A stretch of DNA of 20,000 nt. Source: an uncultured virus (IMG/VR IMGVR_UViG_3300049793_000365). Taxonomy: Duplodnaviria > Heunggongvirae > Uroviricota > Caudoviricetes. A model generated the notes under the pieces. It was not told the origin of the DNA and did not search any database. It saw only the letters and a list, made by a program, of their open reading frames with translations. A program made the translations under genes and the position numbers. Location: IMG/VR virus record IMGVR_UViG_3300049793_000365, one strand, 5' to 3'. Shown piece after piece: positions 1-18,821 of the stretch; the stretch's first letter is position 1, and each line of letters begins with the position of its first letter.

Positions 1-903
1 AGTCTTTGACATTTTTCGACCATCCTTATCGAGTATAGTACCGTGTACTAATAGTTTGTCTGTCTTTCTAATACCTTCTGACTCAAGAAATGCTTGAAAT
101 ATCACAGCCTGAAATCTTAAGTTATCGGGTCCGCATAATTGTATGACATTATCCCAATTGAAGTTATCAGTCAAATAACCAGCGGCAAAAATATAGTTTA
201 ATAGGGCATCAAACCACACGTAAATTACTTGTGAATCATCACCTGGTACGGAAACACCCCAGGGGCAGTTCTCTACCTTACGAGAAATAGATATATCTTC
301 CGCGCCAATAATTAAATTACGAAGTTCTTCTAATTTATTCTGTGGTTCTAAGAACTCAGTATTCTCATTTAACCATTTTAATAATGTATCTCTGTGTGCC
401 GATAACTTAAAGAAGTAATTCTCTTCTTCAACTTCCTTTATTTCCGTTGTTGGGTGGTCAGGGCATTTTCCGTCAACTAATTCAGAATCTTGTTTGTGTG
501 ATTCACAACCAACACAGTATTTACCCTTGTAGTGACCTTTGTAGATATCACCCTTTTCATAAAATCTGTTCCAGATAACTTTAACTTTATCGTGGTGAGA
601 CTTATCTGATGTTTTGTAGAAAGAGTCATATGATATATTAAACTTAGTACAGAAGTCAATCCATACTTCGGTTAAGTTTTTAATATGTGCCTCTGGTGTG
701 ATACCAAGTTCATTAGCTTTAGACCAAACTTTTAAACCATGTTCATCCAAACCAACATTGAAGTGTACGCTATTACCGCTTGATTTTAACCAACGAGTAA
801 TAGCATCTGCTAAGATGAATTCAAATGAGTGACCTATATGTGGAGCTGAGTTCACATACGGTAATGTTGTTGTTAAAAATATTTTCTTATTGAAGATTTC
901 CAA
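1..903 (-). CDS. metG: Methionyl-tRNA synthetase (class I), N-terminal ~300 aa; continues past the left edge; probable TTG start at 903
   Basis: Manual minus-strand translation: LEIFNKKIFLTTTLPYVNSAPHIGHSFEF (HIGH motif), GLDEHGLKV, Zn knuckle YCVGCE...CPDH, EEENYFFKL, DISISR...WGV, IYVWFDALLNY, VHG...DGRKMSKT (KMSKS-like motif at the window edge). Absent from the ORF track because the stop is outside the window. Confidence 0.95.
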   Translation of the reverse strand, partial: MEIFNKKIFLTTTLPYVNSAPHIGHSFEFILADAITRWLKSSGNSVHFNVGLDEHGLKVWSKANELGITPEAHIKNLTEVWIDFCTKFNISYDSFYKTSDKSHHDKVKVIWNRFYEKGDIYKGHYKGKYCVGCESHKQDSELVDGKCPDHPTTEIKEVEEENYFFKLSAHRDTLLKWLNENTEFLEPQNKLEELRNLIIGAEDISISRKVENCPWGVSVPGDDSQVIYVWFDALLNYIFAAGYLTDNFNWDNVIQLCGPDNLRFQAVIFQAFLESEGIRKTDKLLVHGTILDKDGRKMSKT

Positions 904-921
904 ATTTTTAAAGTTAAGATA

Positions 922-953
922 CAAATATACGGATTTATTTATGAATATCCAAA
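922..953 (-). promoter_or_regulatory. Bacteroidota-type primary-sigma promoter (-33 TTTG / -7 TAnnTTTG) for metG
   Basis: Minus strand TTTG (953-950), 20-nt spacer, TATATTTG (929-922); near-identical copy at 5646-5677. Confidence 0.7.
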
Positions 954-956
954 ATA

Positions 957-965
957 TTATATATA
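957..965 (+). promoter_or_regulatory. Putative late promoter, variant TTATATATA
   Basis: One mismatch to the TAATATATA seen at six other gene starts; 4 nt before ATG 970. Confidence 0.55.
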
Positions 966-969
966 GTGA

Positions 970-1404
970 ATGAAACATCTTAGAAGGCTTAATGAATCAA
1001 CTGAGCAGGCTCAATCAATACTAAAGGAAGTCGAAGAATGTTCAGCATCTTTATATGATTATCTGGAAGATATTGGTATAGAACCATTAACTGATTTAGT
1101 TATTAACCAACACTTGGATTCTACTGGTGGTGATAGTTTTATAACCATAGATATAAATGATATCAATAAGTATAAGGGTGATAGACAACACGTAGGTGTT
1201 AGAATATATTTCGTATTGGATAAAAATAAAAAGGATTCATCAACTATAACTTGGATGGGTGATGATTTGGATAAGTTTTCTAAAATATTAGGTCATATAA
1301 ATCTTATGTCTAAAAAGTTAAGAGGTTATTACTTTAAAGTGAGTCAATCCACGCCACTTAGTTGGCCAGGTGTAACATTTGAAATATTAGTTACGATAGA
1401 ATGA
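970..1404 (+). CDS. Hypothetical protein with N-terminal MKHLRRLNES motif (putative capsid-targeted internal protein)
   Basis: 144-aa ORF; shared N-terminal motif; upstream TTATATATA. Confidence 0.75.
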   Translation: MKHLRRLNESTEQAQSILKEVEECSASLYDYLEDIGIEPLTDLVINQHLDSTGGDSFITIDINDINKYKGDRQHVGVRIYFVLDKNKKDSSTITWMGDDLDKFSKILGHINLMSKKLRGYYFKVSQSTPLSWPGVTFEILVTIE

Positions 1405-3055: not shown

Positions 3056-3400
3056 ATGCCTACATTTAATTCGTTTAAGGAATGGTACAGTGAGAACGGT
3101 ACTAAAGAAGAACTAAGTCAATTGAGTAATCTTGAAGTACTCAATGGTTTGAAATCAATAGTGGATATAAAGTCAGCTTTAATCCAATCTCAGAAATATG
3201 AAATGGCGGCTAGAGCCAGGGATTTAGAAAAAACATTATACGACTACATCAACGAACATTACTGTAAACTCGGACTTGGGTTTACTTGTTATAATATGAC
3301 TGATGTACAGTCTATTATTAAATATGAGCTTAAGATAGTTAACCGAAATGAAAGTATCGATAGAATAACAAAAAATGGGTTGTCAGAAGAAGAAGATTGA
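3056..3400 (+). CDS. Small protein with a UVR (UvrB/UvrC; ClpC middle-domain-like) motif and a C-terminal-motif variant
   Basis: IKSALIQSQKYEMAARARDLEKTL fits the UVR pattern K..A...Q.(F/Y)E.AA..RD; near-terminal RNESIDRIT. Confidence 0.65.
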   Translation: MPTFNSFKEWYSENGTKEELSQLSNLEVLNGLKSIVDIKSALIQSQKYEMAARARDLEKTLYDYINEHYCKLGLGFTCYNMTDVQSIIKYELKIVNRNESIDRITKNGLSEEED

Positions 3401-5737: not shown

Positions 5738-6139
5738 ATGATTAAGGTAAAGAATTCACAATTAGACAGCGAAACATTAGACGTAATCAATAAAATTATT
5801 GACCAGAAAATAAAAGCCTCTGCTGCTTTCAAGTTAGCTCGAATAGTTAAAGATTTGTCTTCTATTGTTGAAGAGAAGATGAAGCAAGAAAAGCGCATTC
5901 TTGAGAAATGGGCAGAAAAAGATGCTGATGGTACAATTTTATCGCCACAAGATGCTGATGGTAAGGTAATCCCTAACTCAGTTAAGATTATGGATATGAA
6001 CGCATTCAACCAGGATATGATTGATTTGATGGAAGTTGAAAATGAACTTACTCACACATTATTAAAATTTGATGAGCTTGGTTTAGAAACAGATATCACA
6101 ACAAAAGAATTACTTAAAATTGACTTTTTATTTGAATAA
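5738..6139 (+). CDS. Phage helical protein, possibly DUF1617-like (often near tail genes)
   Basis: 133-aa ORF; AAFKLARIVKDL...EKRILEKWAEKDADG pattern; family assignment from memory only. Confidence 0.55.
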   Translation: MIKVKNSQLDSETLDVINKIIDQKIKASAAFKLARIVKDLSSIVEEKMKQEKRILEKWAEKDADGTILSPQDADGKVIPNSVKIMDMNAFNQDMIDLMEVENELTHTLLKFDELGLETDITTKELLKIDFLFE

Positions 6140-6641: not shown

Positions 6642-8078
6642 ATGTCAACATATAGTATAAATAATGGTCAAATCACAGAAGCAGTAAAACTGAACAATTT
6701 ACAAGATGTATTTATTGGTTTACCTGATAATACCTCTAAGTTAATTGCTCCAGTTGATGTTAGAAATGCTGTTTACACAACATGGGAGAATATCTTATTG
6801 AAGTCAACCATAGTTGGTTCTTCATCTGTTGTATATACTGGCTATGATTTATCTAATCTGAGACAGAAATTTTACTTCGGTAAAAAGACTAACTTGGGTA
6901 TGGATATTATGACCAATACTTTATTAAGTGGTACTATATCAGATGTTGACGTATTTTTTTACAATAATAAATCTGATGTTGATACAAATCAGAATACTAA
7001 GATTGCTTTCTTAGCTGGTACAACATCTTATAACTTTGCTAATGCTCCATATATCGAAGCAAGACAAGTTACTTTCCCATCTTCTATCGATTTATACATA
7101 AATAACACTGGTTATATCGGATTCGGTATGACTGCTGGTAAGATTGATATTGATGCGGCTTTGGTAAGCATAAAGGGTGTTAGATATCCAGTTGCTCCTA
7201 CTAGTAGTAGTTTGTTTTTAACAACGGACATTGCTGGTAATGCTTTTTGGGCATCACCTACTATCACAAATATTAGTAATCCAGGCGCAACAGTTTCAAT
7301 TGTTGGTTCTCCTGTTTTAGTTAATGGTTATCCATTAGAATATACAAACGCATTTCCGTCACAAGTTACGGTTGGTGGTATACCAGCGGGTACTACATTT
7401 AGTAATGTATCTGTTTCACAGATGTTTGATAGTATTTTCTATCCTTACTTAACACCAATTATATCATTGAACACAAGTACATTGGTTTATGAATATGGTT
7501 CATCTTTTGCACCACAATTATTCTGGTCAATACAAGCAAGAACTTTAGATGTTACATCAGCTACGTTAAGTGGTGCTGTATCTCCTATATTACCTGGTGT
7601 TTCAGCGTCAAGTACGTTATCAGGAACATCGTCATCATTGAGTATAACAACTACTAACCCAACAGCAAGTTGGACGTTAGACGTATCTGATGGTACTGTT
7701 TCAGTTGCTACAACAATCGTAGCTACAAGAGTATTTCCATTCTTTTATGGTATGACATCAGCCGCTACAATGAGTGGTGTTACATTATACACTAATTTAA
7801 CAAAAGATATAGATGGCTTTAGTGATAAAGCATATTTATATAGTGGTATAAATGAGTTTATGTATTTTGCATATCCATCAACATATGGTACTGTATCTGA
7901 AATATTTGACCAGAACTTATATCAAGTGTATAATCATGCTGGTGGTGGAGCATTCACATATTCATTATCAACAGTAGCAAGTACAGGATTAGGTAGTAAC
8001 TGGTCTACAAGCTTTTATGTATATAAAACAAATTTATCAACATCTAACTACGGATACCAATTCCAGTTTGTGTTTTAA
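6642..8078 (+). CDS. Putative virion structural protein (tail fibre/appendage-like)
   Basis: 478 aa, very rich in S/T/G/aromatics and poor in charge; fibre-like LTTDIAGNAFW segment; VGGIPAGTTFSN...MFDSIFYPY segment; Ig-like C-terminal half. Confidence 0.65.
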   Translation: MSTYSINNGQITEAVKLNNLQDVFIGLPDNTSKLIAPVDVRNAVYTTWENILLKSTIVGSSSVVYTGYDLSNLRQKFYFGKKTNLGMDIMTNTLLSGTISDVDVFFYNNKSDVDTNQNTKIAFLAGTTSYNFANAPYIEARQVTFPSSIDLYINNTGYIGFGMTAGKIDIDAALVSIKGVRYPVAPTSSSLFLTTDIAGNAFWASPTITNISNPGATVSIVGSPVLVNGYPLEYTNAFPSQVTVGGIPAGTTFSNVSVSQMFDSIFYPYLTPIISLNTSTLVYEYGSSFAPQLFWSIQARTLDVTSATLSGAVSPILPGVSASSTLSGTSSSLSITTTNPTASWTLDVSDGTVSVATTIVATRVFPFFYGMTSAATMSGVTLYTNLTKDIDGFSDKAYLYSGINEFMYFAYPSTYGTVSEIFDQNLYQVYNHAGGGAFTYSLSTVASTGLGSNWSTSFYVYKTNLSTSNYGYQFQFVF

Positions 8079-9516: not shown

Positions 9517-10200
9517 TTAATCGTCGATTTTTTCAAACCACCAATTGAAGTAAATCCAATTGCTACCAACTAACTGATAATATTTATTAGAGATTGAAAA
9601 TACGATTCTATTATCGAAAGCTCTTTCGAGTTTAATAGCCGTACCACTACTTAGAATTTTCTCTTCACCTGTATTTATGTCTATGGCAATAATCTCTTTC
9701 AGAGAACGCCATTCACCTGCTACTGGTGTTAAGAATTTTTTAATAGTTTTTAGAATAATTCCTTTGGTTCTGATTATCCATTCCTTTGTAATATGAAGAT
9801 TGTTTTGGTCTTTGAATACTTCACTTGTCAATGATGCGTCTCTTGTTGTGATATTTCTAATAACACCCCAATAGTCATTCTCATCAATTATAAATTCTAT
9901 GTAAACATCCCAATCACCAGCATTATTTGGTAATATTCTTAATATTTTAAGCGCAGAAATTTCTTGTCTATCTGACATCATAGCTTTTCGTAAAGCCGCC
10001 CATGATTGTGTGTTCATAACACCACCCATAATTGAATTAAGTCTTGCGTTAGCTTGTCTAATTAAATCTTGATGCTTATCAAAAGCATCCGCTGATAGTT
10101 GTGCATCATCTACATGAGTAGAAGCTTGAACTGAATCGGAATTCATTCTTTGGTTGTTAAACTCAGTAAATTCGAGTATCAGATTAGGTTTGCGTTTCAT
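9517..10200 (-). CDS. Hypothetical protein, putative late/virion protein with N-terminal motif variant (MKRKPNLILEFTEFN)
   Basis: 227-aa ORF; TAATATATA 8 nt upstream on the minus strand. Confidence 0.75.
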   Translation of the reverse strand: MKRKPNLILEFTEFNNQRMNSDSVQASTHVDDAQLSADAFDKHQDLIRQANARLNSIMGGVMNTQSWAALRKAMMSDRQEISALKILRILPNNAGDWDVYIEFIIDENDYWGVIRNITTRDASLTSEVFKDQNNLHITKEWIIRTKGIILKTIKKFLTPVAGEWRSLKEIIAIDINTGEEKILSSGTAIKLERAFDNRIVFSISNKYYQLVGSNWIYFNWWFEKIDD

Positions 10201-10220: not shown

Positions 10221-11027
10221 ATGCTCAAGCGATATTTCGACTTTATAAATGAATCTTTAATCACTGGTGAATTACCACGCGATTATGAGTTGGATTTAGA
10301 CTTCATAAAACATTCATTTGAAGATTTTGAGATAAAAGTTAGAATTATGGATGATTCATACCATGATAATGAAGGTAGATTAGTACACGAAGGTGATAAA
10401 AAGTATATAGACCGAACGGATGTATATGTAACGAAAGACATATTCATAGATGGTGCTGATATAAATAGAGATGAAGTTAAATCAATTGTCGTAAAGCTAC
10501 TTAGAAGATTAGAAATAGATGGATATAGAGTAAATAGATTTAATGGGACTATTGGTGGTGATACGATAAACTACATAAGATTGGTTATCTATCCAAAAGT
10601 AACTCCAGTAAAAGAAGCAATTGAAGTACCGAGTATTACACCCATTAAAGGGGAATTGCCAACTACTGAATATTTACGTGCCTTAACTACTGAAATAGAA
10701 GATGAAGGTGTGTATGTTAATTTCTCTAATCCAATACATTCTTCTGATGGTATGACTGTTGATTTGAATAGAGTTAATAGGTTACTAATGAATGGTGAGT
10801 ATGCTGGTACGCAGAAGAGAGACATTTTATCTCGTAAATACTACTTGTGTTATAATGTTATGTTTTCAGTTGATTCACCAGAGGATATTAATTCATATAA
10901 TACATACATTAATAAAATTATTAAAAAGCTTGAACATGATGGCTTTAAATGTGCGTTTTATAATGATTTGGGTAGTGGTATTAAGGATTTATTGAAGACA
11001 GTTATAATTTACCCGAAAGTAAAATAA
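10221..11027 (+). CDS. Hypothetical protein with N-terminal MLKRYFDFINES motif and an internal two-domain duplication
   Basis: 268 aa; KLLRRLEIDGY...LVIYPKV repeated as KIIKKLEHDGF...VIIYPKV. Confidence 0.75.
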   Translation: MLKRYFDFINESLITGELPRDYELDLDFIKHSFEDFEIKVRIMDDSYHDNEGRLVHEGDKKYIDRTDVYVTKDIFIDGADINRDEVKSIVVKLLRRLEIDGYRVNRFNGTIGGDTINYIRLVIYPKVTPVKEAIEVPSITPIKGELPTTEYLRALTTEIEDEGVYVNFSNPIHSSDGMTVDLNRVNRLLMNGEYAGTQKRDILSRKYYLCYNVMFSVDSPEDINSYNTYINKIIKKLEHDGFKCAFYNDLGSGIKDLLKTVIIYPKVK

Positions 11028-11037: not shown

Positions 11038-11364
11038 ATGAAAAACATCAAGAAATTTAAAACATTCGAATCATCTGCCGCTGAGATAGATCCAACAAGG
11101 GTAAACGAAATAATGGATGACCTAACGGCTGCTATTTCAGACTTATCTAAGTATCGCGACAAGTTTATTAACTACTCAAAGGAGTTATCTAACTTCCAAA
11201 ACAAGTCAGATGAGAAGGGTAATGACCAAATTGATGACGCTGTATTAAATTTAGCAGAATCACATGATGATGTTGATGCATTAATAGCGAAAATTGATAA
11301 TATCAATACTGTTCTAAGAGATTATTTAGATAATGGTAGACAATATTTATATACCGGAAAATGA
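11038..11364 (+). CDS. Helical/coiled-coil protein with N-terminal MKNIKKFKTFES motif
   Basis: 108-aa ORF; heptad-like pattern; shared N-terminal motif. Confidence 0.75.
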   Translation: MKNIKKFKTFESSAAEIDPTRVNEIMDDLTAAISDLSKYRDKFINYSKELSNFQNKSDEKGNDQIDDAVLNLAESHDDVDALIAKIDNINTVLRDYLDNGRQYLYTGK

Positions 11365-12653
11365 GATTAAAACGATATCACAATTTTAAATTAAATGAGG
11401 CATTGGATGAGAAGTACATCACAGAAGATGAACTTGAATATGCATTGCAGGGAATTAGAGATATCGATGATGATATAACTGACGTTGATGTTTCTTTTAA
11501 ATTAATAAAAGAATTAGATGGTGTTCAGAAAGATTCACAATACGTTATGAATTTTCCTGGTCATCAGGATAAAGAAACAGAATTGAAGTATGACTTCTAT
11601 GATTCGGTTGTACCAGGTACAGAAGGTTATATAGCATATGAAGTTACTATAACATACGATTATATTTCAAAAAGTAAACCATCCGACACTTTCATAATTA
11701 GTGATGATGACTTTGATTTATCTGAGGAAATGGAATCTGAGGTTAATCGTTTTATAAAAAGAGTTAGAGCTGATTTTAAAGTTAATTTACTTGATTGGTA
11801 TATAAAAGACACGAGTAATTTATCTAGTGATATTCATCCAGTAATAACAGTATATTTCTATAAGCCTTTTCAGATTAAAATTACAGTAGAAGATTTTGTT
11901 AAATTCTATGACATAACTAATTATGTAGTTGAGAATAATAAACTATACATGGATGTATTATTATCAGATGTAGTTCCTGTTTTTATTAAAGATGATAAGC
12001 AAGAAGAGTGGTTATGTAAACGAGTTATTGATGATGATTATTTTTGGGATTACACTACCAGCGCGAGTGATGTTGAATATGCTTTGAATAAAGAACACAC
12101 TGAAATGTTGATTAAGTATTTCGCTGATACATACTTTGATGGTAGTATTGAAGCACTGAACGAAGAGTTTGATAGCGACTTTGAAAAAATGCTTGAGGAA
12201 TATAGTTCAAGTGGGGATTCTAATGTAGAAGTATTATTTGATACGTATAGGAATATGTATTGTGATTCGTTACAAAATAAACATACCGAAGAATTAGAAA
12301 CTGAATTTTTTAGATACATTGAAAAGAATTATAGCTTAAACGGTAGAATTATTGAAAAGGATATCGAACAAACTATTGAGGTTAAATATAAAACCAAGGA
12401 TGATAATGGTAAACTTATCGACAAATGGCATAAAGAAACAGTTTATACAGACAAATATAGATTTGAATTTGATTTTGATTCACTTAAATATTATGATATG
12501 GATAGAATAAAGGGTGATGGTCTAAGCCTATGGGAAGTATGGCGCGAAGCAAACGACCCAGAAAGAACTACATTAGAACCTTATTACTCAGACCACGGTG
12601 ATGTAAACTATCCTGACTTTAACACAGAGATTGCATACATTTTTAAAGAATAG
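11361..12653 (+). CDS. Large acidic protein with N-terminal MRLKRYHNFKLNEA motif
   Basis: 430-aa D/E-rich ORF; ATGA overlap with the previous gene. Confidence 0.75.
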   Translation: MRLKRYHNFKLNEALDEKYITEDELEYALQGIRDIDDDITDVDVSFKLIKELDGVQKDSQYVMNFPGHQDKETELKYDFYDSVVPGTEGYIAYEVTITYDYISKSKPSDTFIISDDDFDLSEEMESEVNRFIKRVRADFKVNLLDWYIKDTSNLSSDIHPVITVYFYKPFQIKITVEDFVKFYDITNYVVENNKLYMDVLLSDVVPVFIKDDKQEEWLCKRVIDDDYFWDYTTSASDVEYALNKEHTEMLIKYFADTYFDGSIEALNEEFDSDFEKMLEEYSSSGDSNVEVLFDTYRNMYCDSLQNKHTEELETEFFRYIEKNYSLNGRIIEKDIEQTIEVKYKTKDDNGKLIDKWHKETVYTDKYRFEFDFDSLKYYDMDRIKGDGLSLWEVWREANDPERTTLEPYYSDHGDVNYPDFNTEIAYIFKE

Positions 12654-12706: not shown

Positions 12707-14635
12707 ATGAGTCTACTAGAAAAAATTAAGAAAAACTGGTCTGAAGGTCACAAAGATATGACTATTCAGGAGTACCTTGAGCTTTGTAAAAAAGATAAGG
12801 ATATATATGCTTCTCCCGCAGAGAGAATGTTACGTACAATTGGGGAACCAGAACTAATTGATACCAAAAGTGATCCAAGACTGAGCCGAATTTTCTCAAA
12901 TAAGCTCATTAAACGCTACCCAGCATTTGCTGAATTTTATGGAATGGAAGATACAATCGAACAAATCGTATCTTTCTTCAAACACGCATCACAGGGCTTA
13001 GAAGAAAAGAAACAAATTCTTTATTTACTAGGACCAGTAGGTGGTGGTAAGTCATCATTAGCTGAGAAGTTGAAACAGTTAATGGCTGATTCACATTTAT
13101 ACGCACTTGTAGGTGAAGATGGTGAAGTTTCTCCAATTTGGGAATCACCGCTTGGTCTATTTTCAGATTATAGAGAATTATTATTAGAAGAATACGGAAT
13201 CGAAAAACGTTATATCCCATCTTGTCCATCTCCTTGGGCGGTTAAAAGATTAAAAGAATATAATGGCGACCTTACTAAGTTCAAAGTTAGAAAACTTAAA
13301 TCTTCAATCCAAGAACAAATTGGTATTGCTAAGACAGAACCAGGTGATGATAACAATCAGGATATATCAGCATTAGTTGGTAAGATTGATGTTAGAAAAC
13401 TTGGTCAGTTTGCTCAGAACGACCCGGATGCTTATAACTTCTCTGGTGCTTTATGTAAAGCAAACCAAGGTGTTATGGAATTCGTAGAGATGTTCAAGGC
13501 ACCTATAAAAATGTTACACCCGTTGTTAACAGCAACACAAGAAGGTAACTATAATGGTACAGAAGCATTATCAGCTATTCCATTTCAAGGAATTATCTTA
13601 GCTCACTCAAATGAATCAGAGTGGGAATCATTTTCAAATGATAAAAAGAACGAAGCCTTTTTAGACAGGGTTTACATCGTTCGCGTTCCATATTGCTTAC
13701 GCTTAACAGAAGAGGTAGAAATTTACAAAAAGTTATTACGTAGTTCTTCATTAGGCAACGCGGCTTGCGCTCCACAGACACTTGATTTGTTGGCACAGTT
13801 CACAGTAATGACTCGTTTAAAAAGACCGGAGAACTCATTATTATCATCTAAGATGAGAGTTTACAATGGTGAGTCATTAAAAGAAACGGATCCTCAAGCT
13901 AAATCATTACAAGAATATCGTGATGATGGTGGTATCACTGAGGGTATGAATGGTATTTCTACACGTTTTGCTTTCAAAGTATTATCTAAAGTTTTCAACT
14001 ACGATAATGAAGAGATAGCAGCTAATCCAATACATTTAATGTATGTACTTGAACAAGAAATTATCAAGTTACAATTAAATAAGGATCTTGAAGATTACTA
14101 CATCGCAATTCTTAAAGATAACATCAAGACAAAATATGCTGAGTTCATCGGTGAAGAAATTCAAAAAGCATACGTTGATTCATACCAAGAGTATGGTCAG
14201 AATATGTTCGAGAAATACTTCTTATACGCTGACCACTGGTGTCGTGACGAAGATTACCGCGATGGTAATACAGGTGAAACATTTGACCGTCAGGTTTTAA
14301 ATGCTGAACTTGAAAAGGTTGAAAAGTCTGCTGGTATTTCTAATCCTAAGGATTTCAGAAATGATATCACTCAGTTTGTTTGGAGAACAAAAGCTTCTAA
14401 CAATGGTAAAATGCCACGTTGGGATGCTTATGAGAAAATTAGAAATGTAATTGAGAAAAGATTATTTTCTAAAACAGAAGATATTATTCCTGTTATCTCT
14501 TTCGCTACAAAATCTTCTAAGGATGAAGAAAAGAAACACGCTGATTTCATAAATCGCATGGAAGAAAGAGGATATACTCGTAAACAAATTCAACTTGTTG
14601 TTGAGTGGTATTTAAGAGTTAGAAAAAATTCATAA
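12707..14635 (+). CDS. yeaG: PrkA/YeaG family AAA+ ATPase (annotated Ser/Thr kinase)
   Basis: EFYGMEDTIEQIV, LEEKKQILYLLGPVGGGKSS (Walker A), KTEPGDDNNQDISALVGK, ANQGVMEFVEMFK, ILAHSNESEW, EAFLDR, VPYCL, GISTRF. Confidence 0.96.
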   Translation: MSLLEKIKKNWSEGHKDMTIQEYLELCKKDKDIYASPAERMLRTIGEPELIDTKSDPRLSRIFSNKLIKRYPAFAEFYGMEDTIEQIVSFFKHASQGLEEKKQILYLLGPVGGGKSSLAEKLKQLMADSHLYALVGEDGEVSPIWESPLGLFSDYRELLLEEYGIEKRYIPSCPSPWAVKRLKEYNGDLTKFKVRKLKSSIQEQIGIAKTEPGDDNNQDISALVGKIDVRKLGQFAQNDPDAYNFSGALCKANQGVMEFVEMFKAPIKMLHPLLTATQEGNYNGTEALSAIPFQGIILAHSNESEWESFSNDKKNEAFLDRVYIVRVPYCLRLTEEVEIYKKLLRSSSLGNAACAPQTLDLLAQFTVMTRLKRPENSLLSSKMRVYNGESLKETDPQAKSLQEYRDDGGITEGMNGISTRFAFKVLSKVFNYDNEEIAANPIHLMYVLEQEIIKLQLNKDLEDYYIAILKDNIKTKYAEFIGEEIQKAYVDSYQEYGQNMFEKYFLYADHWCRDEDYRDGNTGETFDRQVLNAELEKVEKSAGISNPKDFRNDITQFVWRTKASNNGKMPRWDAYEKIRNVIEKRLFSKTEDIIPVISFATKSSKDEEKKHADFINRMEERGYTRKQIQLVVEWYLRVRKNS

Positions 14636-14642
14636 TAATATA

Positions 14643-15032
14643 ATGGGTGAGATTCGTAAATCAGATATTGTAAATGGTGATGTAGCTAAGTATGCTGATT
14701 ACATAACCGATGCCGCTAATAACGCTCTTCAATATTGTGACTATTTGGTACATATTAATTTAAGTGTTAAGGACTTTATCGTAAAATATCACGATAAGGC
14801 AATGAGTGAGACTATAAGAACGATGTCACCAACTGAACTCGAAGAATATGCCGCTTTATTAAATGATATGATAACATTTCAAGAGATTACTGCCGGTAAG
14901 TTGGATAAACTTATCGGTACTCTTGATAAAGATTTATATAATGATTTTAGAGAAGCATATATGGATGAACAATCAGCTCTTAAGAAATACAAAAGAGATG
15001 TTAAAATTAACAAACTAACGGATGGCGACTAA
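14643..15032 (+). CDS. Hypothetical protein inserted between yeaG and yeaH, with C-terminal motif (KRDVKINKLTDGD*)
   Basis: 129-aa ORF; YADYI/YCDYL repeat at 14-residue spacing. Confidence 0.75.
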   Translation: MGEIRKSDIVNGDVAKYADYITDAANNALQYCDYLVHINLSVKDFIVKYHDKAMSETIRTMSPTELEEYAALLNDMITFQEITAGKLDKLIGTLDKDLYNDFREAYMDEQSALKKYKRDVKINKLTDGD

Positions 15033-16290
15033 TATAGTAGATAGAAGAAAAAATCCATCGGGTAAATCGGTTCCTAATCGTCAAAAATTCTTGAAAAGAA
15101 TTGAAGACCAAATAAAGAAAGCTATACCAAATATTGTTGATTCAAATTCAATAGATGAGATAACTAAGGGTAAGGGTAGCATTAAAATTCCAGTTAAGGG
15201 TATCTCTGAGCCGGAATTTGGCTATGACCATTCAAGTGGTGATAAGAAATATGTACATCCCGGTAATAAGAAATATAGTGAAGGAGATAAGATAAAGAAA
15301 CCACAAGGTGGTCAAGGTAAGGGTGGTCGTCAAGGCTCACGCGATGCTGGTGCGACAGAAGATGAGTTTACGGTATCTATATCACGAGATGAGTTTCTTG
15401 ATTTCTTTTTTAAAGATTTAGAATTACCAGATATGGTAAGAAAGCAGTTGACTAAAGTAGTTGATTGGAAACAAAAGAGAGCAGGGTACACCACTGTTGG
15501 TAATCCGTCTCGATTGAATATTGTTAAATCCTATACCAAGTCATTGACGAGGCGCATAGCTATGTGTTCTTATTATGACTCTGAAATTAAAAGAATAGAA
15601 GATAAATTAAAAACAAAAGGTTTATCAAGCGATGAGATATTAAAGTTAGAACAACAGTTAGAAGACTTTAAAAGATTGAAGTTGGCTATTCCATTTATGG
15701 ATGACATTGACTTACGTTACAATAACTTTGATAAATTTCCTGTTCCAAGTACACAAGCAGTAATGTTTTGTATAATGGATGTATCTGGTTCAATGGGTCA
15801 AAACGAAAAGGATATAGCTAAAAGATTTTTCTTATTGTTGTATATGTTCTTGATGAAAGAATATGAAAAGATAGAGATAGTTTATATTAGACATCACACA
15901 GAAGCAAAGGAAGTATCTGAACAAGAATTCTTTGATTCGAGAGAGTCGGGTGGTACCGAAGTATTACCAGCCTTAGAAATGATGAATAATATTATCAACG
16001 AAAGATATAGTGGTGGTTGGAATATTTACGCATCTCAAATTTCTGATGGTGATGTATGGGGTAGACAAGATGCTGATGATTGTGCTAAATTCCTTAATTC
16101 GGAAGTACTTAAGAAAGTACAGTACATGATTTATGTAGAAGTTTGTAGAGAGAGTATGGGAGATTTATGGATGACATACTCCGATGTTAAGGGTAAAAAT
16201 TCAAACTTTGAAATGGGTAAAATTAATAAGGTTAATGAAATATGGCAAGTCTTCCAAGACTTCTTTAGAAAAAAAGTAACTACCAAGTGA
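15022..16290 (+). CDS. yeaH: YeaH/YhbH (DUF444) family vWA-domain protein
   Basis: IVDRR.NP.GKS..NRQKFL, HPGNKKY..GD, G-rich linker, DLELP, PFMDDIDLRY, AVMFCIMDVSGSM (MIDAS), IRHHTEAKEV, ESGGT, WNIY..Q.SDGD. Confidence 0.95.
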   Translation: MATNIVDRRKNPSGKSVPNRQKFLKRIEDQIKKAIPNIVDSNSIDEITKGKGSIKIPVKGISEPEFGYDHSSGDKKYVHPGNKKYSEGDKIKKPQGGQGKGGRQGSRDAGATEDEFTVSISRDEFLDFFFKDLELPDMVRKQLTKVVDWKQKRAGYTTVGNPSRLNIVKSYTKSLTRRIAMCSYYDSEIKRIEDKLKTKGLSSDEILKLEQQLEDFKRLKLAIPFMDDIDLRYNNFDKFPVPSTQAVMFCIMDVSGSMGQNEKDIAKRFFLLLYMFLMKEYEKIEIVYIRHHTEAKEVSEQEFFDSRESGGTEVLPALEMMNNIINERYSGGWNIYASQISDGDVWGRQDADDCAKFLNSEVLKKVQYMIYVEVCRESMGDLWMTYSDVKGKNSNFEMGKINKVNEIWQVFQDFFRKKVTTK

Positions 16291-16610
16291 TGGCTATGAC
16301 ACCCTTTTATATAAGACCAAATCCTGGTTACAGTTATGATCCATGTGAATCAGATAGATATGAGTTCACTCAAGCTATTAAAAAACTTGGATTTGAATTA
16401 ACTAATCCGGAAGTGGATCTTATGAATTTTACATCAGAATGTACGGCGTTATATGTTACTGAGAATAACTTCGATGCTATATTGGTTGAGAAGAATAAGT
16501 ACACTTATATAAATATAGGTAGTAAACGCATAGAGAGTGGTGAATTTAAAAATAGCAGAATATTTTTAAGAGATTTAAAGTTGAAGAAATTAATAAATGA
16601 GCAAGCTTGA
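16287..16610 (+). CDS. Hypothetical protein with C-terminal motif (LRDLKLKKLINEQA*)
   Basis: 107-aa ORF (GTG 16287 or ATG 16290) coupled to the yeaH stop. Confidence 0.7.
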   Translation: MMAMTPFYIRPNPGYSYDPCESDRYEFTQAIKKLGFELTNPEVDLMNFTSECTALYVTENNFDAILVEKNKYTYINIGSKRIESGEFKNSRIFLRDLKLKKLINEQA

Positions 16611-16800
16611 TTTACATGGGGTTAGACACATTGATGTGGATGAGTTGGTTGAAGATTTTATATTAACCAATGAATTACCACTCTATATCATAACTGGTAA
16701 CTCACACGTAATGAAAGATAAAGTTATACGCTTATTGGATAAACATAATTTTAAATATGTAATTCGAGCGCATAATTTAGGAGAAATAGTTGTATTATAA
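16597..16800 (+). CDS. Stand-alone Smr (small MutS-related) domain protein
   Basis: LDLHGV...YIITGNS..MKDKV...L...NLGEIVV; 67 aa. Confidence 0.85.
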   Translation: MSKLDLHGVRHIDVDELVEDFILTNELPLYIITGNSHVMKDKVIRLLDKHNFKYVIRAHNLGEIVVL

Positions 16801-17042
16801 TGGCAAATATACCAGGTAGTATTTTAGTAACAGGATTAGCAGCACCATCTGATAATATAATGATGTGTGACTCAACGGGTAATATATCTTGGGGTAGACC
16901 AAGTAATAACTTACTAATGCGTGATGAGATTACGGGTGAGATATATGAATTGATTGTAAGCAACGGTAAATTAGATATAAGAGCTACTTCTAAGCAAGGC
17001 ATTAGACAACAAAAGATTGATAAAATAGTAGAAGATGAGTAA
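16800..17042 (+). CDS. Small protein with fibre-like segments and C-terminal motif (IRQQKIDKIVEDE*)
   Basis: 80-aa ORF; MMCDSTGNISWGRP resembles LTTDIAGNAFWASP in the 478-aa structural-like protein. Confidence 0.7.
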   Translation: MANIPGSILVTGLAAPSDNIMMCDSTGNISWGRPSNNLLMRDEITGEIYELIVSNGKLDIRATSKQGIRQQKIDKIVEDE

Positions 17043-17286
17043 GAGTGGTTACCATTTAGCTAAAATTCAGAAAGGTAAATTGGGCGAAATCTCAAAGATA
17101 CAAGAAGAATTAGATGAGCTTAAAGATGCTGAGTTACAGGAGTCAAAGGTAATGATTTCAGTAGAGTTATCTGATTTATATGGCGCACTAGAAGCTTACG
17201 CAATTAAACAAGGTTTAACAATGGATGATTTGAAAAAGTTTTCCATAATAACAAAAAGAGCATTCACAAATGGCAAAAGGAAATGA
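17035..17286 (+). CDS. MazG-like (all-alpha NTP pyrophosphatase) protein
   Basis: KIQEELDELKDA...VELSDL matches the EExxE...ExxD metal-binding pattern. Confidence 0.7.
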   Translation: MSKSGYHLAKIQKGKLGEISKIQEELDELKDAELQESKVMISVELSDLYGALEAYAIKQGLTMDDLKKFSIITKRAFTNGKRK

Positions 17287-17485
17287 TGATAAGAGACAAC
17301 GTGAGCTTGTAAATAAATTGATACAAGCGGCTAATCAGCTTAGTAAACAAAATGAGGGAAAGGCTGACCACGTTATTGTTTCTCCTGATTTATATGAGAA
17401 GATAGAAGAAATGAAAGAGTATATTGAAATTCTTGAGCGAATGAAAAATCGTAATAAAGGAATTGATGATGTACTTAACGGTTAA
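17270..17485 (+). CDS. Small protein with C-terminal motif (NRNKGIDDVLNG*)
   Basis: 71-aa ORF, last gene of the operon; convergent with 17482-18207. Confidence 0.7.
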   Translation: MAKGNDDKRQRELVNKLIQAANQLSKQNEGKADHVIVSPDLYEKIEEMKEYIEILERMKNRNKGIDDVLNG

Positions 17486-18207
17486 GGTCTAATCGCAAAT
17501 GTTTCACCTTCTTCTAATTGAAATTCTAATATAACTTTGGTATCTTGAATATTGATATCAATGATTCTATTATTAGACTTCAACTCTTTTTCCATTTTTA
17601 ATATCTGTCTTGCTGTTGGTGTTTCACCACCAAGTCCTAAACCACCTATATCCATTGTTAATTGAATAACATTATTACCCTCTTCTTCATAGTCCATCAT
17701 TTCAAGAGATTGACTAAATTCTCCCAACCAAGTATTTAATTTCTTCTTACTTATAGTAACTCTATTATTCTTTGTATCAACCCAATCTAATTCTGATTTA
17801 TCAGTGATGCCTTTTCTTGGTACGATTAGTCTTATATAATAAGGACCAGGTGAACCATCAGCGTTACCATCACCATTATCGTGACTTAATGTACACTCAT
17901 ATCCAGAACTGATTATCTTCTTCATTGCGGTGTATAAATGTTTATAAACACCAGCTAAATAGTTACTATCTTCTATATAATCACTGACATCATTAATAGA
18001 TAACTCAGTTTTCTTTTTATTCCTTTTGGGAAACATAAATTGAAGTATGAAAATTCTTTCATCCTTAAGCCAACTATCCATTGATGGGTCATAGTCTTCA
18101 ATTAAAGCAAGCAAAGCTGGTTCAACGATATCATTGAGTTCCTTTGCCTCTTTCGCGACTCCTGTATTTTCACTTTCAAATACTTGAAATGATTTAATCT
18201 TTTTCAT
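17482..18207 (-). CDS. Hypothetical protein with N-terminal MKKIKSFQVFES motif
   Basis: 241-aa ORF; TAATATATA 5 nt upstream. Confidence 0.75.
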   Translation of the reverse strand: MKKIKSFQVFESENTGVAKEAKELNDIVEPALLALIEDYDPSMDSWLKDERIFILQFMFPKRNKKKTELSINDVSDYIEDSNYLAGVYKHLYTAMKKIISSGYECTLSHDNGDGNADGSPGPYYIRLIVPRKGITDKSELDWVDTKNNRVTISKKKLNTWLGEFSQSLEMMDYEEEGNNVIQLTMDIGGLGLGGETPTARQILKMEKELKSNNRIIDINIQDTKVILEFQLEEGETFAIRP

Positions 18208-18263: not shown

Positions 18264-18821
18264 ATGATAAATTATAGGATTTTAATACAGGCGTTAGATT
18301 ACTACCAGTCTATGGGCTTCACTCATAAAGAAGTTGATTGGTTAGTTGAAGAATCAATTGCGAATATAACCAAGCCAGATTTTGTTAGAAACTTCTACAT
18401 AGATGACAAAGCATTGGTTGGTTCAGCAGAACAATCATTTTTACAAATGATAACACACAACGAATTACCACCAGGGCAGTATGTGGCATTGACACCATGC
18501 TTCAGAGATGATGTTGAAGATTTGACACATAAGAGATATTTTATGAAAGTAGAATTAATAGATACATTAAATACCTCAGAAGAAAGATTGAATGAAATAG
18601 TTAATATATGTGTTGACTTCTTCAAACAATTTACTGATGTGAGGATAGAGAAAACTGGTGATTTGATGTACGACATTGTAGACGCTAAAACGGGTATTGA
18701 GCTTGGTTCCTATGGTATAAGACATCATCAGTCAGTTAATACGTGGATATATGCTACGGGTGTAGCAGAACCTCGTTTATCAACCGTAATAGACCTAAAC
18801 AATGGCGTGTCCAAACTGTAA
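18264..18821 (+). CDS. Minimal class II aminoacyl-tRNA-synthetase-like (SerRS-like) catalytic domain, no tRNA-binding domain
   Basis: LVGSAEQ (cf. SerRS TAE loop), motif 2 TPCFRDD...H.RYFMKVEL, IELGS, motif 3 ATGVAEPRL; only 185 aa. Confidence 0.8.
   Translation: MINYRILIQALDYYQSMGFTHKEVDWLVEESIANITKPDFVRNFYIDDKALVGSAEQSFLQMITHNELPPGQYVALTPCFRDDVEDLTHKRYFMKVELIDTLNTSEERLNEIVNICVDFFKQFTDVRIEKTGDLMYDIVDAKTGIELGSYGIRHHQSVNTWIYATGVAEPRLSTVIDLNNGVSKL

Follow-up and report, generated by a model that had tools for sequence, protein, structure and literature searches.

The window analysed here is a stretch of 20,000 nucleotides from an uncultured tailed virus (IMG/VR record IMGVR_UViG_3300049793_000365). 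Our concern is with three small open reading frames (ORFs) that lie between positions 14,643 and 17,485 and are called A, B and C below. All three end in the same kind of short C-terminal peptide – the tag – and an earlier note on this DNA, made from its letters, had suggested that they carry fragments of virion proteins and form a possible library of decoys or mimics. ORFs A, B and C are genuine genes, small and conserved, and belong to a huge tailed phage. They are kept by selection, they are encoded away from the head genes, and comparison with related phages shows them – B less surely – to be modular: each joins what looks like a segment of a larger, parental virion-morphogenesis protein to a clade-wide C-terminal tag of apparently helical character. 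The virion-fragment observation is in this sense partly confirmed, and the first interpretation placed upon it partly supported. The parts concerned are the following (aa, amino acids).

14643..15032, + strand: ORF A, 129 aa; scaffold-repeat-like module, helical body and C-terminal tag
14685..14807, + strand: ORF A residues 15-55, with Y-x-D-Y-[IL] repeated in two units of 14 residues (hhalign and profile match to a protease array)
14994..15017, + strand: ORF A tag RDVKINKL, residues 118-125 (pattern match)
16800..17042, + strand: ORF B, 80 aa; variable N-terminal part, conserved core resembling a beta-hairpin, and tag
16800..16853, + strand: ORF B residues 1-18, resembling the start of an 893-aa protein in relative W02
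17004..17027, + strand: ORF B tag RQQKIDKI, residues 69-76 (R69, K72 and I73 invariant in six family members)
17270..17485, + strand: ORF C, 71 aa; helix-strand module like that of a capsid protein, followed by a long helix and the tag
17288..17422, + strand: ORF C residues 7-51, like residues 419-464 of a gp23-type capsid protein
17450..17473, + strand: ORF C tag RNKGIDDV, residues 61-68 (ILERMKNRN-x-GID invariant in 9 sequences)

Self-matches in three protein searches place the window on a contig of 711,805 bp, that is, in a genome of some 0.7 megabases. The nearest public DNA comes from three uncultured phages of 634-642 kb (W01, W02 and W03), which match the window over its PrkA and DUF444 genes only, at 68-72% identity, and which have a gp23-type major capsid protein (Pfam Gp23, expect value (E) 4e-28). 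The ORFs of W02 (642 kb), 988 in all, were called crudely, as longest ORFs with overlaps removed greedily. A metagenome contig, L011, is syntenic with the window over the block formed by ORF A, the ORF at 16287, the Smr-like gene, ORF B, the MazG-like gene and ORF C; a further contig, L012, is 99.7% identical to L011 and adds nothing. Megablast with the whole window gave a match only to the PrkA region of one huge phage, and in IMG/VR neither an exact-match search nor searches with single proteins turned up a relative of ORF A, B or C.

Virion-protein likeness of the three modules

The strongest case is that of ORF A. This gene belongs to no PHROG or Pfam family, no protease domain was found in it, and a word-based search returned only the query itself (one of 11 candidates). 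Its family comprises a syntenic orthologue (L011:264-623, 36% identity), four further small members found among 1.84 billion proteins, and a weak relative (L010) carried by W03. The peptide YADYITDAANNALQYCDYL, quoted from this gene in the earlier note, is present, and with it two Y-x-D-Y motifs, at residues 17 and 31, spaced by exactly 14. When three members are aligned, invariant columns occur only in K16-Y17, Y20, Y31 and Y34-L35 and in the tag.

A profile built from the window and L011 proteins, with the tag removed, was searched against the 988 ORFs of W02. Its top match was g346 (E 1.8e-6, 24.2 bits), a score reached by none of 40 column-shuffled profiles (maximum 14.7 bits); with L010 added, so that the profile held three sequences, the match stood at 31.1 bits (E 1.3e-8). 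The protein g346, of 699 aa, is encoded directly upstream of the capsid gene. Its residues 4-402 match phrog_207, 'head maturation protease' (E 6e-28), and it has a tandem array of the form NIxYSEY[IL]AENLDK, with 12 [YH]-x-[DEN]-Y motifs of which 10 of the 11 spacings are exactly 14. In the hhalign alignment (P 5.7e-5, probability 66%) residues 15-54 of ORF A pair with 288-330 of g346. Six-frame scans of all three relatives gave, as the best non-self match, the ORF adjacent to the capsid gene (699, 727 and 769 aa; E 9e-4, 0.003 and 0.002), each with several repeat matches. Among the 1.84 billion proteins ORF A has 10 matches at E<=0.001. Small family members of 79-134 aa account for five of them, four more are phrog_207 proteases (512-693 aa) that carry this 14-residue array, and the tenth is an unrelated repeat protein; outside its own family, then, four of the five matches are head-maturation proteases. 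The earlier note had likened the repeat in this gene to Y-x-E-Y repeats of the scaffold type. The profile, hhalign and database evidence shows that likeness to be right, since the period is that of the phrog_207 protease array. The likeness of ORF A to a virion-protein fragment is strong at the level of sequence, and its module very probably derives from, or mimics, a virion protein.

ORF C, in which RELVNKLIQAANQLSKQNEGKADHVIVSPDLY was found at 17270-17485 as quoted, had been likened to a helix-strand segment of gp23-type major capsid proteins. Here the evidence lies with the family rather than with the single gene. The family has nine members, the eight homologues being 59-86% identical to the window protein, and its C-terminal third is invariant (ILERMKNRN-x-GID). 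The AlphaFold2 model (predicted local distance difference test score, pLDDT, 71) has a helix at residues 3-27, a loop, and a helix at 39-70; at 71 aa, with two predicted helices and a loop, ORF C does not have a complete HK97-type fold. In six-frame scans of W01-W03 the family profile found one orthologue, a tagged W02 ORF of 59 aa (E 6e-8), and otherwise only the capsid ORF, at the same place in all three genomes (E 0.008, 0.017 and 0.1). Against the W02 proteome the orthologue ranked first, the capsid protein second (E 0.004-0.005), and a 250-aa capsid paralogue, at the homologous element, third. Comparison by hhalign with 3 and with 27 capsid sequences gave P values of 4.7e-4 and 2.6e-4 (probability 32-43%), and the capsid segment in question, residues 419-464, has many invariant columns. 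By BLASTP the window protein matches the W02 capsid protein at E 5e-4; the 59-aa homologue in W02 matches that same capsid protein at E 4e-6, with 13 of 31 residues identical (42%).

Pfam searches point the same way, at low scores. Four of the nine members match Gp23 positions 220-258 with 13.1-19.0 bits; an equally long piece of a real capsid protein reaches 16.8 bits over positions 222-270. The window protein itself gave no Gp23 (PF07068) match at E<=10, and the family stays below the gathering cut-off of 24.4 bits. Single members also touch Phage_cap_E (two of nine), Major_capside (one of nine) and Linocin_M18 (one of nine; E 0.008). The capsid profile found no match among PDB sequences at E<=0.001, and a fold search with the ORF C model returned no PDB match at E<=10 and five in BFVD, all with E above 5. 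At the level of a fragment, local homology of the ORF C family to one gp23-type segment is what these comparisons found. The proposed capsid likeness is moderately supported: it holds for the family and is weak for the window ORF taken singly. We judge it probable that the ORF C module derives from or mimics a virion protein. For A and C, therefore, significant profile matches to scaffold and capsid proteins were found, where the earlier note had named their absence as the result that would count against it; the structural half of the same check, made against PDB and BFVD, gave no match.

The comparison of substitution rates proposed in the earlier note could be made, between the window and L011, on nonsynonymous divergence (dN) only, because synonymous sites are saturated (proportion of synonymous differences, pS, 0.58-0.76). 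By that measure ORF C (dN 0.21) lies near the dCMP deaminase gene of the window (0.17).

With ORF B the argument weakens. The quoted peptides CDSTGNISWGRP and DEITGEIYELIVSNGKL are present at 16800-17042, as is TDIAGNAFWASP in the protein at 6642-8078, which the earlier note had called structural-like and to which ORF B had been said to be similar; a resemblance to tail-fibre segments had also been proposed. The similarity to the 6642 protein fails to convince: the BLASTP alignment, at E 0.28, covers segments other than those quoted, and hhalign, which does align the quoted segments, yields P 0.01 (probability 4%). What remains of it is a match of the 6642 protein to P0002, a protein of another phage and the one homologue of ORF B at 70% identity (E 0.001 over 22 residues), and its place as best non-self match of the ORF B profile in the window proteome (E 0.012), residues 185-207 of the 6642 protein being a weak partner of ORF B residues 15-36. 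L011 has an ORF B orthologue and a tandem paralogue, and W01 and W02 have weaker relatives. What the family conserves is a hairpin-like core, D-x-x-[TD]-G-x-x-[YW]-[EK]-L-[LIV]-[IV]-x-[ND]-G, together with the tag; CDSTGNISWGRP belongs to the variable part, and L011 does not preserve it.

A better partner for ORF B was found elsewhere. Its first 18 residues match the first 18 of an 893-aa W02 protein at 12 positions (pairwise BLASTP E 1e-4; proteome-level E 0.015, a score that none of 40 shuffles reached), and the gene for that protein is one of eight large ORFs in a row (343-1080 aa). Searches for fibre relatives returned little: four aligned ORF B members matched no fibre or tail family of Pfam at E<=10, and tblastn against the phage collection found no match. 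The AlphaFold2 model is all-beta with a pLDDT of 55, and thus too poor for a structure search. ESM Atlas placed ORF B near T4_gp9_10_N, Phage_tail_C, Mtd_N and Phage_fiber_rpt (0.83-0.86) and the 6642 protein near fibre and baseplate families (all below 0.9), results that we treat as leads only; a PDB match of the 6642 protein to pyrophosphatase (E 5.8e-4) was treated as spurious. Of the fibre likeness there stand short, weak matches, in a part of the protein that the L011 orthologue does not keep. It is a lead, the likeness of ORF B to a virion fragment is weak, and a virion origin of its module, by descent or mimicry, is possible but doubtful.

The W02 genome repeats the combination of a copied N-terminus with a tag: in a tagged 97-aa ORF at 62259-62552, 13 of the first 18 residues are those of the 289-aa gene immediately upstream (61390-62259; E 0.006).

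The shared C-terminal tag

The tag common to ORFs A, B and C, R-x-x-K-[ILV]-x-x-[ILV], was searched for as R..[KRQG][ILVM][DNKESQRT].[ILVMF] within the last 22 residues. That it is real, as the earlier note had it, is borne out by its presence in all three ORFs and in 9 of the 32 gene products of the window, always at -9 to -13 from the end (-12 in ORFs A and B, -11 in ORF C) and never internally. In W02 it occurs on 138 of 988 ORFs (~14%); its density per position is 21.5 times higher in the last 22 residues than elsewhere, and the arginine lies exactly at -10 in 69 of 139 cases. The W02 proteins that carry it are small (median 111 aa) and nearly all orphans, a Pfam family being assigned at E<=1e-4 to 3 of the 137 scanned. 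Codons for arginine, leucine and isoleucine within the tag mirror those of the genome, so selection acts on the peptide. We considered, and rejected, the reading of the tag as a DNA-level signal for the next gene, a ribosome-binding site or promoter, because those codons vary as they do in the genome at large and because the gene that follows the tag of ORF C is convergent. A search of the phage literature found no description of the tag.

Tagged small genes cluster at both ends of the W02 record (1-20 kb and 571-642 kb), where they form long arrays on one strand; many of them finish in ...R-D-x-K-L-x-x-L-G-I.

Gene neighbourhood and other fragment-bearing genes

The window is AT-rich (GC 0.29-0.36) and includes a MetRS fragment, the small subunit of ribonucleotide reductase, a NUDIX protein, dCMP deaminase, a HisRS-like protein, PrkA and DUF444. 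The neighbours that bear on the argument are these.

6642..8078, + strand: 478-aa Ser/Thr-rich protein, in no Pfam or PHROG family
12707..14635, + strand: PrkA-type AAA+ protein, first in the overlapping string (Pfam AAA_PrkA E 4.6e-167; PrkA C-terminal domain E 1.4e-61)
15022..16290, + strand: DUF444 (YeaH-like) protein (Pfam DUF444 E 2.3e-147)
16287..16610, + strand: 107-aa orphan with the tag RDLKLKKL; its homologue at L011:604-915 is tagged too
16597..16800, + strand: 67-aa Smr-like protein, untagged (Pfam Smr E 1.3e-4, below the curated cut-off; 72% identical in L011)
17035..17286, + strand: 83-aa MazG/PRA-PH-like protein, untagged (phrog_6408 E 1.4e-32; Pfam PRA-PH E 0.0017, below the cut-off)

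Between the PrkA gene (12707) and the end of ORF C (17485) each start overlaps the previous stop or lies no more than 7 bases from it, and ORF C ends head-on against a convergent gene. The string looks like one transcription unit. Scans of the window for consensus promoters and for terminators gave about what chance would give: 30 promoter-like sites where 27.6 were expected, and one terminator-like site where 2.2 were. Among sequencing runs, only the probable source DNA run is listed as containing the stretch, and no RNA run is. Placement of ORFs A, B and C in a non-late operon, as had been proposed, is consistent with their position in an overlapping string with PrkA and DUF444. For the tagged 107-aa orphan no match to a large protein was found.

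How general the copying of fragments may be was examined in W02 by searching small ORFs (at most 170 aa, any tag trimmed away) against 215 large ones (at least 250 aa). Of the tagged ORFs 4 of 118, and of the untagged 21 of 472, matched a larger protein at E<=1e-3 (Fisher p 0.80), and 'library' is accordingly too strong a word. Many of the untagged matches are shared N-terminal domains; matches to internal segments are mildly enriched among tagged ORFs (4 of 118 against 3 of 472, one-sided p 0.03). A tagged 61-aa ORF that directly follows DUF444 in W02 (277261-277446; L026:17261-17446) matches capsid residues 513-546 (E 2e-7). A tagged paralogue of 261 aa, directly upstream of an ORF B-like gene, covers the C-terminal half of the capsid protein (E 5e-7), and untagged pieces match capsid residues 8-129 (E 1.6e-12) and 32-67. 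Fragment-bearing mini-proteins appear, on these alignments, to be a real but small subset of the tagged proteins. A search of the phage literature found no description of mini-proteins made of capsid or scaffold fragments.

Two observations on this subset may be set down here. In two genomes a tagged fragment-bearing mini-gene lies in, or just after, the PrkA-DUF444 pair: ORF A in the window, and the gene with capsid residues 513-546 in W02. A functional link between such genes and the PrkA-type AAA+ protein is possible. Elsewhere in the window, a 114-aa ORF at 3056-3400 has a tag-like end (RNESIDRI), and its residues 32-65 match a UVR-like hairpin (residues 306-339) of the Clp-type ATPase of W02 (E 4.3e-5); it resembles two tagged W02 ORFs, which also have the UVR-like hairpin of the Clp ATPase, and L009:1146-1445.

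What the mini-proteins may do

A critical question is what purpose such copies would serve. The explanation that we prefer begins with the pieces themselves: two 14-residue repeat units of the head-maturation protease and scaffold protein in ORF A, the invariant helix-loop-strand of the major capsid protein (residues 419-464) in ORF C and, less surely, the N-terminal 18 residues of a large fibre-like protein without annotation in ORF B. These pieces would be the interaction surfaces of their parent proteins, and the mini-proteins would act as competitive 'microproteins', each occupying the site at which a partner normally receives the parental segment. Candidate sites are the bundling of repeats in the scaffold core, the contacts between capsid neighbours, and the attachment site of the fibre; their occupancy would modulate, delay or poison the assembly of particles, and the shared tag would dock A, B and C, along with about 100 other small proteins, to one common partner. 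That the modules, taken overall, derive from or mimic virion proteins is likely, judging from sequence comparison. The further claim that the mini-proteins work as competitive modulators of assembly is put forward with distinct hesitation, and the explanation as a whole, mimic-type microproteins that modulate assembly, is a tentative one, the best that we can offer.

Several findings weigh against this explanation. The comparisons with capsid, scaffold and fibre proteins were all made with the proteins of the relatives W01-W03 and not with those of the window phage. Tagged W02 proteins in general are not enriched for fragments, and when single window proteins were searched against the 215 large W02 proteins, five of 22 small ones reached E<0.01 against some large protein. 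Taken alone, ORF A of the window has another protein as its best large-protein match (E 0.061), and its pairwise E with g346 is only 0.003. For ORF C, too, the window protein alone against the capsid among the 215 large W02 proteins gives E 0.23, and the profile's capsid score of 13.2 bits is barely above the best of 40 shuffles (12.6). The same stretch of ORF C matches Phd/YefM in six of nine members and DUF1415 in eight of nine, as against Gp23 in four of nine, and its best sequence match in PDB is a designed TIM barrel (E 7.5e-7, from three repeats of 11.7 bits), followed by guanylate kinase, so that the module is a generic helix-strand-helix unit as well. The capsid segment at residues 419-464 we take to be a helix-strand of the axial domain, and an isolated copy of an element buried in the core does not necessarily bind the folded capsid protein. 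As to ORF B, the 893-aa protein that matches its N-terminus falls into no family of Pfam or PHROG, the matching N-terminus of that protein was found in W02 only, and the L011 orthologue of ORF B does not keep the N-terminal part.

Some of these points lend weight to the view that the three genes have no relation to the virion at all, and that the likeness is convergent or due to chance: an amphipathic helix with a 14-residue periodicity in ORF A, a generic helix-strand-helix unit in ORF C and a short N-terminal match in ORF B, all in ordinary accessory proteins, of which ORF C might be a Phd/YefM-like dimer. The Phd/YefM match (E 6e-4) and the designed barrel are indeed better than the match of ORF C to any capsid family, single window sequences are not significant at the level of a proteome, and the ORF B match is 18 residues long. 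Chance sits poorly, however, with the head-maturation proteases that make up four of the five outside-family matches of ORF A and have the same motif and the same period, with the 42% identity over 31 residues between the W02 homologue of ORF C and the capsid protein, and with an ORF C profile whose top three matches are all of the capsid family. All three best matches, moreover, are of the morphogenesis type that the earlier note had foreseen, and no toxin-like partner was found flanking ORF C. We regard a chance likeness as unlikely. Decay would be a different account, in which the genes are functionless remnants of duplicated structural genes. W02 does have several partial copies of its capsid gene, of differing lengths; yet ORF C evolves as slowly as dCMP deaminase and has an invariant tag in a family of nine, the invariant columns of ORF A are exactly module and tag, and the frames are intact, overlap the starts of their neighbours and are syntenic. 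Debris is a very improbable explanation.

If the modules are functional, they might instead be handles. The mini-proteins could be cargo that co-assembles with the scaffold core or the capsid by way of the module, is packed in the head and is delivered with the DNA, the tag serving as a second address label or as a functional end, by analogy with the internal proteins of T4. A short scaffold-type repeat could bundle with the repeat array of the protease, several other window genes have an N-terminal motif that we take to recall the T4 capsid-targeting sequence, and small orphan proteins, as the tagged ones nearly all are, would suit such a role. But A, B and C sit with PrkA, DUF444 and genes of nucleotide metabolism rather than in a head module, the packaging of all the tagged products – 14% of ORFs – seems a lot, and a buried element of the capsid core makes an odd handle; cargo seems to us rather unlikely. 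A last reading, placed first by the earlier note ahead of assembly modulators and superinfection inhibitors, has the mini-proteins as decoys for host immune sensors, presenting epitopes of capsid, scaffold and fibre that soak up a sensor without triggering it. Bacterial sensors of major capsid proteins exist, Avs7 and Dsr1 being described in one account (PMC13581612); few parts of the capsid protein are as invariant as the segment copied in ORF C, a property to be expected of a sensor's target, and the genes lie outside the structural modules. As that account presents them, though, the sensors recognise folds and not 40-residue pieces (PMC13581612). A scaffold repeat would be a poor immune target, and a literature search found no description of phage-encoded decoys made of capsid fragments. 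We know of no capsid sensor in this host or clade, and consider decoys quite unlikely.

The preferred explanation, competitive modulation of assembly, can be carried further. One could imagine a genome-wide adaptor system in which a single hub of phage or host reads the tag helix and the bodies of about 100 tagged proteins are interchangeable binding modules; candidate hubs are the phage's Clp-type ATPase/protease and its PrkA-type AAA+ protein, whose gene string includes A, B and C, and candidate modules are the scaffold repeat, the capsid core element, the fibre N-terminus and the UVR hairpin of the Clp ATPase. Such a system would time, cap or degrade the phage's own morphogenesis proteins, or sabotage those of co-infecting relatives. 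We think it improbable in this full form. Were binding to the parental sites nevertheless true, huge phages would possess built-in regulators of the dominant-negative type, composed of segments from their own capsid, scaffold and fibre proteins – a new layer of assembly control, or of competition between phages. The modules also offer a concrete way into the unexplained tag found on about one in seven proteins of this clade: members that bear fragments are the easiest tagged proteins to test, because their partners can be predicted.

Parallels with known systems are partial. Eukaryotic microProteins are small proteins such as Id or LITTLE ZIPPER. Like them, A and C are small and related to an interaction segment of a larger protein without its other domains; unlike them, they are phage-encoded, have parents in virion morphogenesis and bear an added C-terminal tag. 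With the phrog_207 protease ORF A shares two tandem 14-residue units of the form Y-x-[DE]-Y-[IL]-A-E, but it has no protease domain, two units rather than 9-12 motifs, and an unrelated helical body and tag. Residues 7-51 of ORF C align with capsid residues 419-464, that is, with positions 220-258 of the Gp23 profile (PF07068); at 71 aa against about 570, and below the Pfam cut-off, ORF C cannot form the HK97 fold. Its strand-then-helix matches positions 31-64 of the 74 of Phd/YefM (PF02604) in six of nine members, at 14.8-19.9 bits against a cut-off of 29.8 and with the N-terminal half of that domain missing; its neighbours are the MazG-like 83-aa gene and a convergent 241-aa orphan, and no adjacent toxin gene was found. 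The Ccm protein of SaPIbov5 is a satellite's capsid homologue that redirects head assembly. A sequence copied from a capsid protein is common to both cases, interference with or redirection of assembly being the feature of Ccm; Ccm is a full-length HK97-fold protein of a parasitic element, whereas here there are fragments of 60-130 residues that belong to the phage itself.

Two further systems invite comparison with the tag. The capsid targeting sequence of T4, present on IPI-III and Alt, is N-terminal and is removed by the prohead protease; it resembles the tag as a short terminal peptide common to otherwise unrelated small phage proteins, and differs in that the tag is C-terminal, amphipathic and basic, and present on ~14% of ORFs. 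Cargo-loading peptides of encapsulins are short C-terminal peptides that bind diverse cargo to an HK97-fold shell. The tag, too, is a short C-terminal peptide on diverse proteins, and ORF C has one weak Linocin_M18 match (E 0.008); the tag sequence is different, there is no encapsulin shell, and the match lies in the body of ORF C rather than in its tag.

A second shared terminal peptide came to light, at the N-terminus of otherwise unrelated proteins: M-[KR]-x-[IL]-K-x-[FY]-x-x-F-x-E-[SN]. In the window it occurs on the genes at 970-1404, 1401-1961, 9517-10200(-), 10221-11027, 11038-11364, 11361-12653 and 17482-18207(-), and elsewhere on L001:5301-5858(-), L003:5349-5747(-) and L011:2044-2799(-). 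It resembles the capsid-targeting sequence of the T4 internal proteins, and the proteins that bear it may be packaged head proteins.

A few observations concern other genes. The MetRS gene at 1-978(-) is cut by the window edge (Pfam tRNA-synt_1g E 1.4e-67), and a HisRS-like core fragment of 185 aa lies at 18264-18821 (phrog_4806 E 1e-42). In the window no SpoVR gene follows DUF444. W03 does have a SpoVR/YcgB-like gene downstream of PrkA and DUF444 (L003:12370-14277), with an apparent intein-like insert that begins with C after NEG and ends in HN, followed by C. Finally, a 133-aa protein of the window (5738-6139; phrog_1401, function unknown) ends in ...LLKIDFLFE, which we take to recall the C-terminal sliding-clamp-binding tails of T4 polymerase, gp33 and gp55.

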